The notes under the pieces: model-generated
Seen by the model: the letters and a program-made list of their open reading frames with translations, nothing else
Told to the model about the DNA's origin: nothing
Databases searched by the model: none
Part shown: piece after piece, positions 4,446 through 42,274 of the stretch
Layout of the letters: every line of letters begins with the position of its first letter
Position numbering within the stretch: the stretch's first letter is position 1
Position numbers and translations under genes: made by a program
Origin: a virus
Length of the DNA stretch: 43,721 nt
Reading direction: 5' to 3' (one strand)
Virus record (IMG/VR): IMGVR_UViG_3300035146_000036

Positions 4446-5093
4446 ATGAGTTATGATGATATGCGGTCTTCTGTTCCAGAGGGGGTTTCTGGAAATTGGG
4501 AGGTGAAAAAATTCAGTGTGTCGAAAGAAGATGCTGAATTTAATATGATGAGGTCAATATATAGTTTTTCTAGTAGCGGTAGGTATGTTCCTGAAGGACA
4601 ATATACAGGATTATATGTCAATGGACAGGTCATGATGTCTGATACCCCAGATGAACTTAGTGACCATTACCAACCTCTTTCTGTTGCTTCTGGCATATGT
4701 TTAGTGTCGGGTCTTGGATTGGGCTGTGTTGTTGAGGGAATGCTTAAGAAGCGAGATAGCCAAGGGAGATTGGCGGTTGATAAAGTGATCGTTCTGGAGA
4801 AGAGTAAAGATGTTTTGAATCTTGTAGAATCTCATTTCGTAGACAGATACGGAGATAGAATTGAAGTGAGAAACGTAGATGCTATTGAATATATGCCACC
4901 GCGTGAAGAAAGGTACGATGTTGTGTGGCACGATATTTGGTTGCATTTATGTGAGGATAATTTAGAGGAAATGACTCTCCTGCACAGGAGATATGGAAGA
5001 AAAGCTGACTGGCAAGGGAGTTGGGGAAGAGAGGTCTTGAAAAGGAGAAGGCAGAAAAACAGAAGAAATGATAGAAGAGGATTCTTTTTTTAA
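4446..5093 (+). CDS. putative class-I SAM-dependent methyltransferase-fold protein with basic C-terminal tail
   Basis: ICLVSGLGLGCV (motif I-like), VIVLEKSKD (acidic end of beta2); Arg/Lys-rich C terminus. Confidence 0.4.
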   Translation: MSYDDMRSSVPEGVSGNWEVKKFSVSKEDAEFNMMRSIYSFSSSGRYVPEGQYTGLYVNGQVMMSDTPDELSDHYQPLSVASGICLVSGLGLGCVVEGMLKKRDSQGRLAVDKVIVLEKSKDVLNLVESHFVDRYGDRIEVRNVDAIEYMPPREERYDVVWHDIWLHLCEDNLEEMTLLHRRYGRKADWQGSWGREVLKRRRQKNRRNDRRGFFF

Positions 5094-5113: not shown

Positions 5114-5142
5114 TTGACAAATTTTTTGGAATGATGATAATG
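5114..5142 (+). promoter_or_regulatory. sigma70-like promoter TTGACAAAT-N17-gATAAT
   Basis: Sequence match; would drive the tRNA-like / Y-RNA-like cluster and possibly rsr. Confidence 0.45.
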
Positions 5143-5179
5143 GAATCAGTTGTTGAGGAGAGGACTGCTAAGGTAGTTC

Positions 5180-5252
5180 AGAAAAATAGCTCATTAGGTA
5201 GAGCGATAGATAGAGGATCTATAGGTAACAGGTTCAATTCCTGTTTTTTCTT
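5180..5252 (+). ncRNA. aberrant tRNA-like RNA (perfect acceptor, D and T arms; anticodon loop UAGAGGA lacks U33)
   Basis: agaaaaa/tttttct acceptor, gctc/gagc D stem, ataga/tctat anticodon stem, acagg-ttcaatt-cctgt T arm. Confidence 0.4.
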
Positions 5253-5286
5253 CCCACACTACTTTTACTACTATCTCTCCTCAATA

Positions 5287-5319
5287 TTTTATCGCTTCAA
5301 AAGAAGCGTGGATTGAAAC
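5287..5319 (+). repeat. solitary CRISPR-repeat-like unit 1: hairpin (cgcttc-aaaa-gaagcg) + TGGATTGAAAC
   Basis: Shares TATCG-hairpin-TGGATTGAAAC architecture with 8445-8479 and 16377-16413. Confidence 0.45.
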
Positions 5320-5327
5320 AAAAAAGA

Positions 5328-5474
5328 TGACATCGAGGACTAAATAGACGGTTCAGCTAGTGGATTTCTAATCCGCAGGTTATAGGTTCGAATCCTATTT
5401 TGTGTACCATATTCGCACAAGTAGCTCAAAGGTAGAGCAGCGTTAGTTTTCGTTTATTGAAATATCTCGATGTT
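5328..5474 (+). ncRNA. candidate Y RNA (YrlA-like): circularly permuted tRNA-like module enclosed by a long-range stem
   Basis: The 3' half of a tRNA (anticodon arm gtgga-UUUCUAA-tccgc, T arm atagg-ttcgaat-cctat, acceptor tttgtgt, A, CCA) at 5359-5409 is followed, after a 5-nt linker, by a 5' half (gcacaag-ta-gctc-aaaggta-gagc) at 5415-5438. Flanks 5330-5343 and 5443-5473 are complementary. Confidence 0.4.
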
Positions 5475-5510
5475 ATTTTTATAAGTATACTGGGAACTGA
5501 ATAGACAGTT

Positions 5511-5583
5511 CAGGATATAGAGCAATTGGTAGCTCATCGGCTTTGCACGCCGAAAGTCGTTGGTTCAAATCCAACTATCTTTC
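5511..5583 (+). tRNA. tRNA-Ala (UGC)-like (G3:U70 present, C1:U72 mismatch)
   Basis: D arm gagc-aattggta-gctc, anticodon stem tcggc/gccga with loop UUUGCAC, T arm gttgg-ttcaaat-ccaac. Confidence 0.55.
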
Positions 5584-5737
5584 ACGAACACTGTTTGTTA
5601 AAATATCCCAGTTTTTTCACTTCTGATTCCGAGAACTATACAGACATTTCAGGCAAGTATGCAAGTATGGTTGATAGTGTTTGTTAAACTGTCTCGGGTT
5701 TTTTTATTCTGGGACAATAATAACCAGGAGGTGTGTG

Positions 5738-7408
5738 ATGAATAGCATTACACGGATAGATGATGTTTGGTCGATAGTTGGAGTTGAGCCTGTTAGAATA
5801 GCGGATGATGTTTGTGCTTTTTTGGATGTGAGTACTACATCTTTTGGTAGGGCGACACATTATAATAGTCGTGAGAAGCAGTTGCATACTGAAGCAGCGG
5901 TTCATGGTCGTCTTTTTGATATATCGAGAGATTTGTATCAAATTTTGTTGTCATTACCAGGTACTACAGATAGAGCAAGACAAATAGGGATGTCTGCTTT
6001 GTTAGGAAGTAAACAGAAGAATGGCAAAGAATGTCTTTTGACTGGTACTATGGAACGAAGGGTTCTCGAGAGTTTTGTTAAGAGTTTACCTCCCCAAAGG
6101 ATGTTGAAATTATTTGATGCTTTTCGTGGATTCGGGAATGAGTTTGGAGCGAAAAAGTCAAATAATGCTCGAACAAGAAAACTTATTTTGAGGACTATTT
6201 TGAATAGTCCACGGTTAGAATTATGGACGATAAAATATCGTTCAAAATTGCAGAGAATTTTATCTCATGCATGGGGAAGAAGTCTCGGTTCTGCTATTGG
6301 TGCTGTAGCTGCCAAAAAGAGACGTAATGACAAAGAAAAATCTATGCTTAAAAAGCATGTTTTGAGTTATTTGGGTAGTAATTGTGGAAAAGTTGAAGTT
6401 GTAAATTTAAACCATGTTTTACAGTGTATTGCGTTTTTGTACGGGGAAAGAGACCGGATAAGTGATGACATGAAACTGTTGCAAAGTTTCATTAATGCAA
6501 AAACAAATATTTCTGATGGTTTGAAATTGCCGGCAGAGATAATTGAAGGAATAAGAAGCACTTATCATAAAAATGTTAGTGCATCAGAATTATTGAAGAT
6601 GCGTGCCGATGTAGGAGGTATAAGAACTCGTTACGAGAAAAGGGTAGTGCAGAAAAGGGTGAAAGAAGTTGGTGGAAAAGTAGAGATGAATCCACTGGAT
6701 TATGATGCAGTAGAACTTTATATCTATGCTTTTGAGGTTGGAGCAGATAGTGAAATACTTGAAGCATTAGATAAAAAAGCCAAAGATGCTGCAAAATTGT
6801 TGCCTGTTAGTTATGATAAGCTTGCAATTATTGTAGATGCATCGAAATCCATGGAAGGGAGCAAAGAGCAACCGATGAGACCGTTGGCAACTGCACTCTC
6901 TATTAGAGATATGTTGCAGAGGTCAGCAATTGAGTCAACGGTTTTGTATTGTGGTGGATTTGCAGATACTAAAGATATGCCGGATATATCTTCTAAGATA
7001 AAGATAGTAAAACCATCGTATGAAACAGAATTGGCTCAATCATTGTTAGATGCTTTGGTTTATGAACCTGATGCAGTATATGTGATTAGTGATGGATATG
7101 AAAATTCTCCTGCTGGACGATTTGGAGATGTTCTTAGAAAGGCTCGAGAAATAGGTATAGATGTTCCTGTAATCCATTGTAATCCTGTATTTGCATCTGA
7201 GACGGGTTCGGTTAGGGCATTGTGTGAAGGGATAGAGAAGGTTACTACATTGCCTGTGAGAAGTCCTATGGCAATGGGGTCTGGTATTATTCGTGGATTA
7301 ATAGAATCAGACCCGAGACGTGGATTGAACAGTATATTAAGGATTGCTTTGACTGGTGATTCTCCGTTGGCTGGATTGCTGACAGAGGGAGATGGAGGTG
7401 TGTCATGA
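5738..7408 (+). CDS. rsr: Ro60/Rsr-like protein (helical TROVE-like N-terminal region + C-terminal vWA domain with MIDAS)
   Basis: vWA MIDAS motifs LAIIVDASKSM ... SDGYEN, aligning with Ro60 LLAIDVSASM ... TDCETN; helical ~350-aa N-terminal region; SD aggagg before ATG 5738. Confidence 0.5.
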   Translation: MNSITRIDDVWSIVGVEPVRIADDVCAFLDVSTTSFGRATHYNSREKQLHTEAAVHGRLFDISRDLYQILLSLPGTTDRARQIGMSALLGSKQKNGKECLLTGTMERRVLESFVKSLPPQRMLKLFDAFRGFGNEFGAKKSNNARTRKLILRTILNSPRLELWTIKYRSKLQRILSHAWGRSLGSAIGAVAAKKRRNDKEKSMLKKHVLSYLGSNCGKVEVVNLNHVLQCIAFLYGERDRISDDMKLLQSFINAKTNISDGLKLPAEIIEGIRSTYHKNVSASELLKMRADVGGIRTRYEKRVVQKRVKEVGGKVEMNPLDYDAVELYIYAFEVGADSEILEALDKKAKDAAKLLPVSYDKLAIIVDASKSMEGSKEQPMRPLATALSIRDMLQRSAIESTVLYCGGFADTKDMPDISSKIKIVKPSYETELAQSLLDALVYEPDAVYVISDGYENSPAGRFGDVLRKAREIGIDVPVIHCNPVFASETGSVRALCEGIEKVTTLPVRSPMAMGSGIIRGLIESDPRRGLNSILRIALTGDSPLAGLLTEGDGGVS

Positions 7409-8412
7409 GTAGAAACATATCGATGGAAGACATCCTTTTTGGGATAGGTGCAGGAAGAGCACAATCGGTAGGAAATATGGAGGTTATTCCTTTGATTTCT
7501 GAAGATCGTGACGAGATAATTGATGAAAGTATGTATGGGACTCCTGCAGATGTGGAGATAGGTACTCGGAATTATGGCGAAGTTGATATGAGGAATGTTT
7601 CTGACCGAGTGAATTTTGTTCCTCCTGGTGCTGGTTGGGTTGTTAAAGAAGCTGCTCAAGACCATGCTATAGGAAGTGGAGAGATTCTTGGTCCAAAGAC
7701 ATCAAATCTTGTGAAGACTGCAAGATGTATTCAGTCTAATCAGGGTGGAACTATTTCGAAAGCAGCTCATGAGATGCTTGTTTTGCCAGTTGAACTTCGT
7801 GGTATTGCTTTAGCTAAAAGAAATATGCATGGATATAGTGAGATGTGGGATGATCTTGCTAATTTTAATTCTCAACATGGTATTCAAGGGTTTAAAGAAC
7901 TTGCTATTTTCTTGCAGGAATTTAAGCGACAAATGGATCAATTTGTTGCTGAGTTTGAGTTGGTACCAAATCAAATAGGAGCAGTGATTATTATAAATGG
8001 TAAAGTTATCGGTATTGAAATTGCTCCTACAAGAGATTATTGGCAATATGTTTGGACACCTTTGATTAGGGTATGTTATGGGTCTTTGGCATCTGAGTGT
8101 TATAAGAGGTCAAGTGTGGACCATAGAAATATACCTATTTCGAATAGGGATCCATTAGAGCTTGTTGAAAATACACTTTCTGGATTACGGGATGCTGTTT
8201 TGAAAACTGACCAGGATAGGATAGATGCTGTTAACGTTTTTGTTTCTTCTCTAAAAAAGAAGAAATTTTTGGTTGGTAATGTAGAACAGAATAGGAGTGA
8301 CCATTATTTATTATCTGGTTTGATACGTCCAGATCGTGAAAATGGACAGATTGAAGGTCAGATTGTTGTTACAGAAAAGACTATTCCGTTCTTTTCTGCT
8401 TGTGGTGTTTGA
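7405..8412 (+). CDS. hypothetical protein (335 aa), translationally coupled to the rsr-like gene
   Basis: ATGA overlap with upstream stop; no recognised motif. Confidence 0.65.
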   Translation: MSRNISMEDILFGIGAGRAQSVGNMEVIPLISEDRDEIIDESMYGTPADVEIGTRNYGEVDMRNVSDRVNFVPPGAGWVVKEAAQDHAIGSGEILGPKTSNLVKTARCIQSNQGGTISKAAHEMLVLPVELRGIALAKRNMHGYSEMWDDLANFNSQHGIQGFKELAIFLQEFKRQMDQFVAEFELVPNQIGAVIIINGKVIGIEIAPTRDYWQYVWTPLIRVCYGSLASECYKRSSVDHRNIPISNRDPLELVENTLSGLRDAVLKTDQDRIDAVNVFVSSLKKKKFLVGNVEQNRSDHYLLSGLIRPDRENGQIEGQIVVTEKTIPFFSACGV

Positions 8413-8444: not shown

Positions 8445-8479
8445 GTTATCGACCTATTAAATAGGTTGTGGATTGAAAC
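8445..8479 (+). repeat. solitary CRISPR-repeat-like unit 2: GTTATCGACCTATTAAATAGGTTGTGGATTGAAAC
   Basis: 35-nt unit starting GTT, 8-bp hairpin, ending ATTGAAAC. Confidence 0.45.
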
Positions 8480-10045: not shown

Positions 10046-10051
10046 AAATCA

Positions 10052-10139
10052 GGAAGGTAACCGGCTGGATCAGGAGCATGTTTTGAAAACATGTGGCGCA
10101 TTGAGAGATGCGTTATGGGTTCGAGTCCCATACCTTCCT
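10052..10139 (+). tRNA. tRNA-Ser (UGA)
   Basis: Acceptor ggaaggt/accttcc, anticodon stem catgt/acatg with loop UUUGAAA, variable hairpin cgcat/atgcg, T arm atggg-ttcgagt-cccat. Confidence 0.8.
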
Positions 10140-12346: not shown

Positions 12347-12375
12347 TTGACAAATTTTTTTATCGTTGTTAGATA
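12347..12375 (+). promoter_or_regulatory. sigma70-like promoter TTGACAAAT-N17-TAGATA
   Basis: The -10 ends 5 nt before ATG 12381, suggesting a leaderless transcript. Confidence 0.5.
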
Positions 12376-12380
12376 TATAT

Positions 12381-13274
12381 ATGATTGATTCATGTCTTGA
12401 CACGGGTGATGAAAATCATTGGGGTATACGGAAAGGAGATATTTTGAAATTTGGGGCAGTTTTTATAGATTTTGAAAATTTGTATTTGTCTTTGAAGCAT
12501 AAATACAAAGAACACGATATTTTATTTGTGAAAATAGTAGAAGCTGTTATAGATAGACTTGAAAATGACCTTGAATCCACTGTCGTTGTAAGAAGAAATT
12601 ACTTACCATTTGGTGCTCATGATTATGCTACTATGGCAGATGAACTTGCGTTAGATGGGTTTAAGTCAGTACATGTTCTTGCAGAATTATCGAAAAATTC
12701 AGCAGATTTAGTGCTTGCTGTTGATGCTATGGAAACAGTTTATACACGTGATAATATTGAGGTTTTTTGTATTATTGGGGGTGATAGAGATTATATTCCA
12801 GTAGTAGCGAAATTGAAAGAGCTTGGTAAACATTGTATAGTGTGTTCTATGCCTGATTCTATGTCTGGAGATCTTCTTAGATTTATAGGTGAAGATTTAT
12901 ATTTTAATCCTATTGAAATGGTAGAATGTGTATTAGTGGTTGACAGGAAAAGTTGTTCAAAGAAAGAATCTATATCAAAAAAGATAGATGATGAAGAGGT
13001 TGAACGATGGAAGTCTTTTGCTAAAGTTGCACATGATATGAGAGAAAAATATGACAATCCTGAAATATGGATGGCTCCGTATATCACATTGTTGTCAGAA
13101 AGATTTCCTAACTTAGCTAGAAAAGACATTCGTGACACAATTGCTAGTATGGAGAAGTGTGGTATATGGCATAGAGAGGAGAGAGAATCAGATAGAGCGA
13201 ATATTAGTTCATATTCTGTTTTGATAGTAGACTGGAATCATTCATTAATACAGGAAACGTTGATGATTGAATAA
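12381..13274 (+). CDS. NYN-domain (LabA-like PIN) ribonuclease-like protein with C-terminal OST-HTH/LOTUS-like region
   Basis: GAVFIDFENL ... LVLAVDAMET ... FCIIGGDRDYIPVV motifs of NYN domains; no SD upstream. Confidence 0.6.
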   Translation: MIDSCLDTGDENHWGIRKGDILKFGAVFIDFENLYLSLKHKYKEHDILFVKIVEAVIDRLENDLESTVVVRRNYLPFGAHDYATMADELALDGFKSVHVLAELSKNSADLVLAVDAMETVYTRDNIEVFCIIGGDRDYIPVVAKLKELGKHCIVCSMPDSMSGDLLRFIGEDLYFNPIEMVECVLVVDRKSCSKKESISKKIDDEEVERWKSFAKVAHDMREKYDNPEIWMAPYITLLSERFPNLARKDIRDTIASMEKCGIWHREERESDRANISSYSVLIVDWNHSLIQETLMIE

Positions 13275-16376: not shown

Positions 16377-16413
16377 GTTGTGTCGCCTCATTAAATGGGG
16401 CGTGGATTGAAAC
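16377..16413 (+). repeat. solitary CRISPR-repeat-like unit 3: GTTGTGTCGCCTCATTAAATGGGGCGTGGATTGAAAC
   Basis: 37-nt unit with hairpin cgcctc/ggggcg and an ATTGAAAC 3' end. Confidence 0.45.
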
Positions 16414-41644: not shown

Positions 41645-42274
41645 ATGGAAAAGTTATATAAATATCCTAGAACATTTCATTTTCCTTGGTCTGAGACAGT
41701 TGCTTCAGATGATAAGGTGTTGACTGATATATCATGTTTTGTTGGGTCTGAAATTGTTGTTACTGAGAAAATGGACGGTGAGAATTGTACCATGTATAGA
41801 GACCATATTCATGCCAGAAGCATTGATGGGTTATTTCATCCTAGTAGAGCATGGGTAAAAAATATGTGGGCTGATATTAGGTATGATATACCGGTTGGTT
41901 GGAGGATTTGTGGAGAAAATTTGTATGCAAAACATTCTATAAGTTATCTTAATTTGAAGTCATATTTTTATGGGTTTTCAATATGGAATGAGAACAATGT
42001 TTGCTTATCTTGGGATGAAACTATTGAATGGTTTGAACTTTTAGGGATTGTTCATGTTCCAGTTTTGTATAGGGGGGAATTTGATGTTGATGTTCTGAAA
42101 GATTTATCAATTAATAAAGATAAACAAGAGGGATATGTTGTTAGACATGCTTGTTCCTTTCGATATGATGAATTCAAGAAAAGGGTGGCCAAATTTGTAA
42201 GGTCAAATCATGTCAAAACTGATGAACATTGGATGCATAGTAAGGTTGAGAAGAATTTATTGATGGAGGGTTGA
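41645..42274 (+). CDS. ATP-dependent RNA ligase-like nucleotidyltransferase (Rnl2/PF09414-type)
   Basis: Motif I EKMDGEN (KxDGxN), motif IV EGYVVRH, motif V AKFVRSNHVK. Confidence 0.55.
   Translation: MEKLYKYPRTFHFPWSETVASDDKVLTDISCFVGSEIVVTEKMDGENCTMYRDHIHARSIDGLFHPSRAWVKNMWADIRYDIPVGWRICGENLYAKHSISYLNLKSYFYGFSIWNENNVCLSWDETIEWFELLGIVHVPVLYRGEFDVDVLKDLSINKDKQEGYVVRHACSFRYDEFKKRVAKFVRSNHVKTDEHWMHSKVEKNLLMEG

Follow-up and report, generated by a model that had tools for sequence, protein, structure and literature searches.

What is encoded by a piece of viral DNA that holds all the parts of a tRNA, arranged in the wrong order? The question is raised by positions 5328-5475 (element E2) of IMG/VR virus record IMGVR_UViG_3300035146_000036, a stretch of 43,721 nucleotides (the window). 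Bacterial YrlA RNAs are bound by Ro60, are encoded beside rsr, have paired ends and carry as their effector domain a permuted tRNA mimic composed of a T arm, a closed acceptor stem and a D arm (PMC4201824; bioRxiv 10.1101/312249). Knowledge of such tRNA-mimicking Y RNAs in bacteria and phages goes back to 2014, and their discovery relied on TROVE proteins and the YrlA covariance model. Because E2 was read as a permuted tRNA-like RNA whose ends pair in a long-range stem, beside an rsr-like gene, the initial annotation proposed a YrlA-like Y RNA or, alternatively, a permuted tRNA in need of ligation. The analysis reported here indicates that E2 is probably a Y RNA-type partner of the protein encoded downstream, and that its closest known relative is YrlA.

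Sequence layout of E2

Direct reading of E2 recovered an anticodon arm, a T arm and a 3' acceptor strand followed by A and CCA, then the 5' acceptor strand and a D arm, as first annotated (coordinates in Table 1). The two acceptor strands are complementary in 7/7 pairs, including 2 G-U pairs. In the native order, no tRNA was called by ARAGORN at 5328-5475, though 16 tRNAs were called elsewhere in the window. When positions 5415-5439 were joined to 5360-5409, ARAGORN called a 75-nt tRNA-Arg(tct), CCA included, so that "circularly permuted tRNA" describes E2 literally. The E2 gene encodes all of a tRNA cloverleaf, with its parts in circularly permuted order and clasped by a long stem; a contiguous cloverleaf with the acceptor strands at its ends, as in a canonical tRNA gene, is absent. 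The match to the Rfam tRNA model was marginal (32 bits at 5339-5406): it came from the anticodon and T arms, with the acceptor aligned as a gapped pseudo-acceptor and the D arm nearly missing.

Several features would suit a genuine permuted tRNA gene: the de-permuted sequence is flawless, its anticodon loop is canonical (U33, A37), and the RNA ligase gene annotated at 41645 is real (41645-42274; Pfam PF09414, E 1e-34). In algae and an archaeon, permuted tRNA genes are known whose products mature via a circular intermediate, according to the citation of Soma et al. 2007 in bioRxiv 10.1101/312249.

An artefact of dimeric tRNAs was ruled out, since the upstream part has no 5' half, the downstream part has no anticodon or T arm (both as originally noted), and the acceptor strands pair together and covary. 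Brute-force de-permutation of 38 family members gave an ARAGORN tRNA call in 37/38, with many different anticodons per element; this test is therefore non-discriminating and was used only for the window sequence with its exact junction.

Fold and covariation of the E2 family

Every element of E2 was recovered in the single-sequence minimum free energy (MFE) fold (-43.6 kcal/mol, z = -4.18, 0/200 shuffles as good). For comparative analysis, the covariance model R1 was built from five E2 homologues and run on 160 loci fetched via the neighbouring protein; the sources were viral contigs, metagenomes and genomes, with complete bacterial chromosomes among them as well as phage contigs 100-435 kb in length. 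The same architecture was found by R1 in about 40 phage and bacterial loci. With RNAalifold, five homologues gave the same helices, with double (compensatory) changes in 16 pairs.

In a 15-sequence family alignment, 93.0% of the cells were standard pairs, a value somewhat inflated by fitting the alignment to the covariance model, with a margin over the controls that is still very large: none of 500 shuffles matched it, and sliding the 3' partners left 38-48% pairing. Compensatory changes were present in 35 of the 38 pairs. They affected all pairs of helix 1 (H1, 9/9; 89.6% of cells paired) and helix 2 (H2, 8/8; 89.4% paired), the stem of the anticodon-like hairpin (helix 3, 5/5) and the acceptor (helix 5, 7/7; 98.1% paired), and the T arm was 100% paired. 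With 17/17 pairs compensatory in H1 and H2 together, the flanks show the conserved pairing expected of a Y RNA, and the ends of E2 thus lie in a basal stem with internal loops, as in YrlA.

The outer pairing had been annotated at 5330-5337/5466-5473. This core is perfect, extends to 5328-5338/5465-5475 and covaries family-wide. A second annotated pairing, 5338-5343/5443-5448, had to be given up: it is not kept in L024 or L004 and competes with H2, the conserved helix being 5343-5351/5450-5458.

A parser independent of the model, with the acceptor window fixed at 7 nt and at least 6 pairs required, identified the succession of T arm, 7-nt 3' strand, loop, 7-nt 5' strand and D arm in about 40 elements, and the acceptor window was matched in nearly every candidate examined. 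The acceptor loop starts with a discriminator and CCA in about 10 lineages (ACCA, GCCA, UCCA, CCCA) and with ACUC in others.

The Ro60-like protein and its linkage to ARPP and to E2-type RNAs

The product of the gene at 5738-7408 is predicted to have a Ro60-like fold over its whole length: its AlphaFold model (predicted local distance difference test score, pLDDT, 78.8) was submitted to Foldseek, and the eight top matches were all Ro60/TROVE chains, full length, with E-values of 6e-7 to 3e-4. The rsr-like character noted at first thus holds at the level of the predicted fold and is invisible to Pfam, NCBIfam and PHROGs; beyond weak vWA signals, no match was found in these databases or, with phmmer, among PDB sequences. 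The protein has hundreds of relatives, none of which is annotated as TROVE or Ro60. Among 50,697 GenBank phage records it was found in one, an uncultured 462-kb phage, and a DNA search of the GenBank phage records returned only a single unrelated 37-nt tRNA match.

Immediately downstream of the Ro60-like gene, an ARPP homologue was found in 141 of the 160 fetched loci, often with overlapping stop and start codons. ARPP proteins are predicted to act on ribose or ADP-ribose moieties (PMC9503650); the pairing with a Ro60-like gene is absent from the ARPP neighbourhoods listed in that paper. Chromosomal Ro60-like/ARPP pairs, often with an E2-type RNA upstream, were observed in Myxococcota, Planctomycetota, Yinghuangia (Actinomycetota) and others.

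Of the loci whose upstream sequence was usable, a large proportion carry on the same strand, ahead of the Ro60-like gene, either a full-length R1 match or a tRNA-like gene whose anticodon is odd. Permuted E2-type RNAs are located 50-250 nt upstream of the Ro60-like gene, on the same strand, in the phage loci L011, L053, L056, L058 and L059, and likewise upstream in bacterial chromosomes or metagenome-assembled genomes (Minicystis rosea, Polyangiaceae, Haliangium, Pseudohongiella and others). Overall (L043 included), the distance is mostly 50-600 nt, and it reaches 1-3.6 kb in L018, L020, L003 and L004. The combination of protein, ARPP and RNA was found described in none of the open-access papers and preprints searched.

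E2 relatives and the anticodon-like loop

The close relatives L030/L109, L027 and L024/L025/L031 carry the E2 element with its parts in the same order, and so do the phage contigs L004 (~176 kb) and L003 (~195 kb). A contiguous tRNA was found at the E2 position in none of the relatives, which have there either the permuted arrangement or the remnant of a deletion. The triplet at the anticodon position is UCU in the window and L027, UUU in L030 and L024, GAU in L004, ACA in L003, CAU in L043 and UAG in L018; the change from UCU to UUU separates relatives at 93% protein identity. Some family members have anticodon-like loops of 5, 6 or 9 nt, and in many the loop is not 7 nt long or lacks U33. 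This loop is the least conserved region of E2, with a mean pairwise identity of 0.45 vs 0.94 for the T loop. Neither the anticodon nor the identity is conserved among orthologues, as it would be in permuted decoding tRNA genes.

In L029, whose protein is 97% identical, the neighbouring RNAs E1, E3 and E4 (see below) are retained and E2 is cut to its first ~40 nt. The remnant (L029 4704-4745) consists of the basal 5' strand and a hairpin, followed directly by E3, as after a clean internal deletion of ~85-110 nt. L026 has no E2. An ordinary tRNA-Arg(UCU) is already encoded in the window at 1957-2035 (ARAGORN). E2 is very probably not a decoding tRNA, and its variable loop suggests a sequence that is either unconstrained or in diversifying use.

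In L003 and L004, the E2 homologue forms a separate unit that runs from its own TTGACA promoter to a T run (T7-8 after the H1 3' strand), 3.6 kb from the protein gene, and can therefore act in trans. A phage transfer-messenger RNA (tmRNA) gene (Rfam 96 bits) lies directly downstream of this homologue (L004 483-860, L003 374-729).

A basal module shared by four consecutive RNAs

The basal module of E2 encloses four consecutive RNAs, E1-E4. Although R1 was built from the E2 type alone, it matches E3, E4 and E1 over the full length of the model. The 5' half of this module, made up of H1, a 4-nt loop, H2 and UUCAG, is the 21-nt motif GRRACUNNNNAGNNNKUUCAG, which has 4 local copies (at 5161, 5336, 5493 and 5632) against an expectation of 1.9 for the window as a whole. 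The TTGACA promoter of the window recurs in relatives: it precedes the RNA arrays of L024, L026, L027 and L029, and in L003/L004 it stands immediately before the solitary E2 homologue.

E1 and E3 score 61 bits as tRNA with Rfam and both were called by ARAGORN. Their anticodon loops are unusual: UAGAGGA (odd), CAUGCAA and AAUGGGA for E1 in the window and near-identical relatives, and UUUGCAC, AUUGCAA, CAGAAAA and one 9-nt loop for E3 in the window and relatives. In an alignment of 12 E3-type RNAs from 12 loci, compensatory changes were found in 21/31 pairs, the anticodon loop was hypervariable, and the unpaired motifs GRG(R)ACU and UUCAG were conserved in sequence (identity 0.82-0.83). E1 and E3 are probably Y-like RNAs mis-called as tRNAs.

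In huge-phage relatives, the "tRNA" nearest to the Ro60-like gene has odd anticodons: ACA, UUA ("Stop"), UCA (selenocysteine) and a two-base "tc". Since these genes overlap full-length R1 matches, apparent suppressor tRNAs may be Y-like RNAs.

Table 1. Coordinates of the RNA elements, genes and related loci (positions refer to the window unless a locus is given)
Feature	Position	Strand	Basis or remark
E2, whole permuted tRNA-like RNA, first to last base of the outer helix	5328-5475	+	Direct reading, fold, covariance
E2 helix H1, 5' strand, pairs with 5465-5475; start of conserved GAGGACU motif (5335-5341)	5328-5338	+	
E2 helix H2, 5' strand AAUAGACGG, pairs with 5450-5458 UCGUUUAUU; conserved UUCAG next at 5352-5356	5343-5351	+	
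E2 anticodon-like hairpin: 5-bp stem gtgga 5360-5364 / tccgc 5372-5376, 7-nt loop UUUCUAA 5365-5371, "anticodon" UCU	5360-5376	+	
E2 variable region aggtt, 5 nt	5377-5381	+	
E2 T arm AUAGG-UUCGAAU-CCUAU	5382-5398	+	
E2 acceptor stem as closed hairpin: 3' strand UUUGUGU 5399-5405, 5' strand GCACAAG 5415-5421	5399-5421	+	
E2 acceptor loop ACCAUAUUC: discriminator a 5406, cca 5407-5409, linker tattc 5410-5414	5406-5414	+	
E2 D arm GCUC-AAAGGUA-GAGC, preceded by U8-A9 equivalents ta at 5422-5423	5424-5438	+	
E2 helix H2, 3' strand UCGUUUAUU	5450-5458	+	
E2 helix H1, 3' strand, followed by T-rich run ttattttt	5465-5475	+	
Sigma-70-type promoter TTGACA-16-GATAAT, upstream of the RNA array	5114-5141	+	11/12 consensus matches
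E1, normal-order tRNA-like RNA (called tRNA-Leu(GAG), 5180-5252), same basal stems	5151-5286	+	MFE outer helix 5151-5163/5274-5286; R1 31.1 bits
E3, normal-order tRNA-like RNA (called tRNA-Ala(UGC), 5511-5583), same basal stems	5489-5612	+	Fold z = -4.35; R1 40.2 bits
E4, short RNA, basal stems only, no tRNA-like domain, followed by T run	5628-5698	+	MFE; R1 36.5 bits from the basal module alone
Ro60-like protein, 556 aa: N-terminal helical repeats and C-terminal vWA with MIDAS-like DASKS	5738-7408	+	
ARPP-domain protein, start overlaps the Ro60-like stop	7405-8412	+	Pfam ARPP-1 2.6e-25, ARPP-2 2.9e-7
Chromosomal Ro60-like/ARPP pairs	L110 (Minicystis rosea CP016211), L113, L116, L146, L150; Planctomycetes L121-L131		
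"tRNAs" with odd anticodons	L001 3748-3820, L004 3766-3841, L005 3654-3727, L017 3311-3382 and 3685-3759, others		

Comparison with known RNAs

The only Rfam families matched by E2 were tRNA (above) and YrlA (RF02553; 37.2 bits at 5358-5462, E 3e-6 locally). E2 homologues in L004, L011, L018 and L020 scored 31-37 bits against the YrlA model, again the sole non-tRNA family matched. E2 resembles YrlA (RF02553; S. Typhimurium, M. smegmatis) in being encoded on the same strand beside a gene for a Ro60-type (TROVE plus vWA) ring, with the partner assigned here via its predicted fold, and in having its ends in a basal stem with internal loops. Both share the permuted order of T arm, closed acceptor stem and D arm (Chen et al. 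2014), the nucleotides of tRNA tertiary contacts (U8, D-loop GG, UUCGAAU T loop, A15/U48) and the occurrence of multiple Y RNAs at one locus; a 7-bp acceptor stem is also present in YrlA of M. smegmatis.

Published YrlA RNAs have no anticodon loop, the Ro-binding stem running on into their "anticodon stem" (Wang et al. 2018; bioRxiv 10.1101/312249), whereas E2 has a free, covarying hairpin of 5 bp and 7 nt at 5360-5376, and its basal stem joins the tRNA body at the 26/27 hinge. Further differences are the 5'-strand motif, which is GRG(R)ACU...UUCAG and not GNCGAAN0-1G, the discriminator and CCA often encoded in the acceptor loop of the E2 family, and the partner protein, which lacks a detectable TROVE signature and is coupled to ARPP and not to RtcB/RtcA. 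E2 is outside the Rfam YrlA family.

E1 and E3 are comparable to Yrn1 of Deinococcus radiodurans, a Y RNA whose D-, anticodon- and T-like elements follow the normal order (PMC4201824): they too have these arms in that order, and the basal stem stands in for the acceptor end or lengthens it. E1 and E3 come close to perfect cloverleaves, whereas Yrn1 is only loosely tRNA-like; the orientation of E2 is the opposite one, as in YrlA. The Ro60 of Thermus phage phiLo (PMC12135203; PDB 9KOP, 9L5Y), with Yrl1/Yrl2 upstream, has a TROVE domain recognisable by sequence, unlike the protein described here. The phiLo Yrl RNAs were found via CGAA motifs and described as stem/bulge Y RNAs, and the term "tRNA-like" has 0 occurrences in PMC12135203.

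Permuted tRNA genes of algae (Cyanidioschyzon merolae and others) and archaea, as outlined in the preprint that cites them, have, like E2, the 3' half first, a closed acceptor loop, paired termini and a canonical tRNA once de-permuted. There, decoding tRNAs are matured by a cut at a bulge-helix-bulge and by ligation, with a circular intermediate on the way. E2 differs in its unconserved anticodon, its permutation point at 26/27 and its linkage to a Ro60-like gene in bacteria and phages. In the MFE fold, a bulge-helix-bulge is absent at the E2 junction, where a 5-nt single-sided bulge lies beside a weak 5-bp helix that is itself unsupported family-wide.

Another permuted tRNA-like RNA is the two-piece tmRNA encoded by circularly permuted ssrA of alpha-proteobacteria and some cyanobacteria, in which a cut frees the CCA end and the pieces stay paired. 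Unlike E2, it has SmpB as its partner, an mRNA-like tag, no anticodon arm and no Ro60 link.

Weighing the Y RNA assignment

Taken with the predicted fold of the protein, the linkage and the shared order of parts make it likely that E2 is a Y RNA-type partner of the Ro60-like protein, closest to YrlA. From the initial proposal of a YrlA-like Y RNA, the permuted order, the paired ends and the recurrent pairing of RNA and protein are retained; E2 lies outside Rfam YrlA, lacks the GNCGAA motif and departs from YrlA in its free anticodon hairpin.

Several observations weigh against this assignment, in addition to the partly inflated pairing mentioned above. The score of E2 against RF02553 is about half the gathering score (37.2 bits vs 69), so that the YrlA match was obtained below threshold. 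The Ro60-binding motif GNCGAAN0-1G is absent from the E2 5' strand UGACAUCGAGGACUAAAUAGACGG, which reads AUCGAGG there, and the family consensus on this strand is YGRG(R)ACU in its place. No TROVE sequence signature was detected in the protein, even with a 27-sequence profile (including against PDB), and its TM-scores to Ro60 are only about 0.4; the Ro60-like function is therefore proposed from the overall fold. The tight coupling to ARPP suggests a biology possibly unlike that of known Ro60 particles. Finally, a third helix of the MFE fold (5355-5359/5444-5448) was dropped, equally long helices being found in 14-100% of shuffles in a per-sequence family test.

Three other explanations were weighed. 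The RNAs may serve ARPP, as a substrate or guide for a ribose reaction, or act in cis as an operon leader or autoregulatory site, without being bound by Ro60. The frequency of the ARPP coupling, the predicted activity of ARPP and the location of the RNAs in the operon 5' region in most loci would all fit. This explanation is nevertheless unlikely, given the separate promoter-to-terminator unit of L003/L004 and an adjacent protein whose best structural analogue is an RNA-binding ring with such RNAs as its known partners.

It is a little harder still to regard the long-range helices as RNase III-type leader-trailer stems or terminators of a phage tRNA operon, in which E1 and E3 would be ordinary tRNAs and E2 a decayed, functionless by-product of tandem tRNA duplication. 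E1 and E3 are indeed called as tRNAs, E3 has the G3:U70 alanine identity pair, a T-rich run ends every element, and E2 is dispensable in L029 and absent in L026. Yet decay would not be expected to leave an architecture with compensatory changes in ~40 elements of distant phages and bacteria. The sequence conservation of the unpaired motifs in E3-type RNAs points to a protein site and not to a generic duplex, the E1/E3 anticodon loops are non-canonical or hypervariable, and the elements follow the Ro60-like gene, not tRNA clusters generally.

A genuine permuted tRNA gene, whose basal stem would be excised, whose 26/27 ends would be joined by the phage RNA ligase and whose acceptor loop would be opened by RNase P and 3' trimming to release a working tRNA-Arg(UCU), is highly improbable: despite its flawless de-permuted form, the anticodon shifts between close relatives and even between L003 and L004, the loop often departs from 7 nt or U33, E2 is deleted in a 97%-identical phage, the same element precedes the same protein in bacterial chromosomes, the basal module is shared with E4, which has no tRNA part, a normal tRNA-Arg(UCU) is present, the junction lacks bulge-helix-bulge geometry, and bacteria are not known to have a splicing endonuclease.

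Proposed mechanism

As a Y RNA, E2 would be transcribed from the promoter at 5114 along with its three tandem neighbours, either together with the Ro60-like gene or shortly ahead of it. The basal module common to E1-E4 (H1, H2 and the unpaired GRG(R)ACU and UUCAG) would provide the docking site for the Ro60-like ring, as suggested by the linkage, the motif that they have in common and the fold of the protein. Above this module, the E2 body would present the anticodon-like hairpin, the T arm, the 7-bp acceptor closed by its loop, and the D arm; the join between body and basal stem, at the 26/27 hinge of the tRNA, is what gives the gene its circularly permuted order. By analogy with YrlA, the body may be a mimic that engages tRNA-binding or tRNA-recognising factors, and not a decoder.

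Most YrlA acceptor stems are poor RNase P substrates (PMC4201824; bioRxiv 10.1101/312249), but the 7-bp stem of M. smegmatis YrlA is cut by RNase P, and this RNA acquires CCA in vivo (PMC4201824). For E2, RNase P cleavage is predicted from the 7-bp acceptor stem and the loop starting with discriminator-CCA. A cut before G5415, followed by trimming, would yield a two-piece RNA with a tRNA-like CCA end. Even if E2 is a Y RNA, this step is a tentative prediction, which we expect to fail slightly more readily than to hold.

A broader and rather doubtful possibility is a three-part system of a cryptic Ro60-like ring, an ARPP enzyme and tRNA mimics, distributed in huge phages and in Myxococcota, Planctomycetota and others, in which the mimics would be decoys, baits or sensors for tRNA-directed attack. 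The anticodon loop would then be under diversifying change, and the attackers could be, for example, anticodon nucleases or ribose/ADP-ribose modification of tRNA. Opened by RNase P, the E2 type would become a tRNA look-alike in two pieces that has its CCA end free and is tethered to the ring.

Other observations in the window

A ~30-nt hairpin with GTGGATTGAAAC at its end (e.g. GTCGCCTCATTAAATGGGGCGTGGATTGAAAC) occurs as four isolated copies, at 1142-1173, 5291-5319, 8448-8479 and 16382-16413 (+ strand), the second of them between E1 and E2 within the RNA array; 0/100 shuffles gave 4 copies. The hairpin is also present in L027 (~4940-4972) and L029 (4676-4703). The copies resemble single type I-C-style clustered regularly interspaced short palindromic repeat (CRISPR) units without an array; the 12-mer occurs in CRISPR-repeat papers, and the Rfam CRISPR-DR9 match was weak (19.4 bits). 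They are possible solitary repeat units or RNA anti-CRISPRs.

The region 10051-10139 scored 48 bits as Rfam tRNA-Sec (gathering score 47) and was called tRNA-Ser(UGA) by ARAGORN; it is most likely an ordinary long-arm tRNA-Ser. A protein with an NYN domain (RNase-type) is encoded at 12366-13274, just past the second tRNA cluster, and is conserved in L027 from 11140, where the open reading frame (ORF) runs off the end of the locus. The ORF at 4446-5093, just upstream of the RNA array, matches a PHROG methyltransferase family (1.4e-41), has no Pfam match and is conserved only in the closest relatives.

Significance

The E2 family is apparently a conserved phage and bacterial relative of YrlA/Ro60 particles that was not described before. 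Both routes by which Y RNAs have been discovered miss it, the protein being unlabelled as TROVE or Ro60 in every source that contains it and the RNA scoring at half the threshold. The Ro60-like module is common nonetheless, as judged from the 160 fetched loci. If confirmed, the system would represent a second lineage of Ro60-type particles, in which a Y RNA can bear a whole cloverleaf with an anticodon hairpin, and a single locus can present the tRNA body in permuted and in normal orientation on the same docking stem. It would also link Ro60 biology to ARPP, a predicted ribose/ADP-ribose enzyme from conflict systems. Several "tRNA genes" of huge phages with odd anticodons (ACA, UUA "stop", two-base) are probably Y-like RNAs, and not decoders or suppressors.

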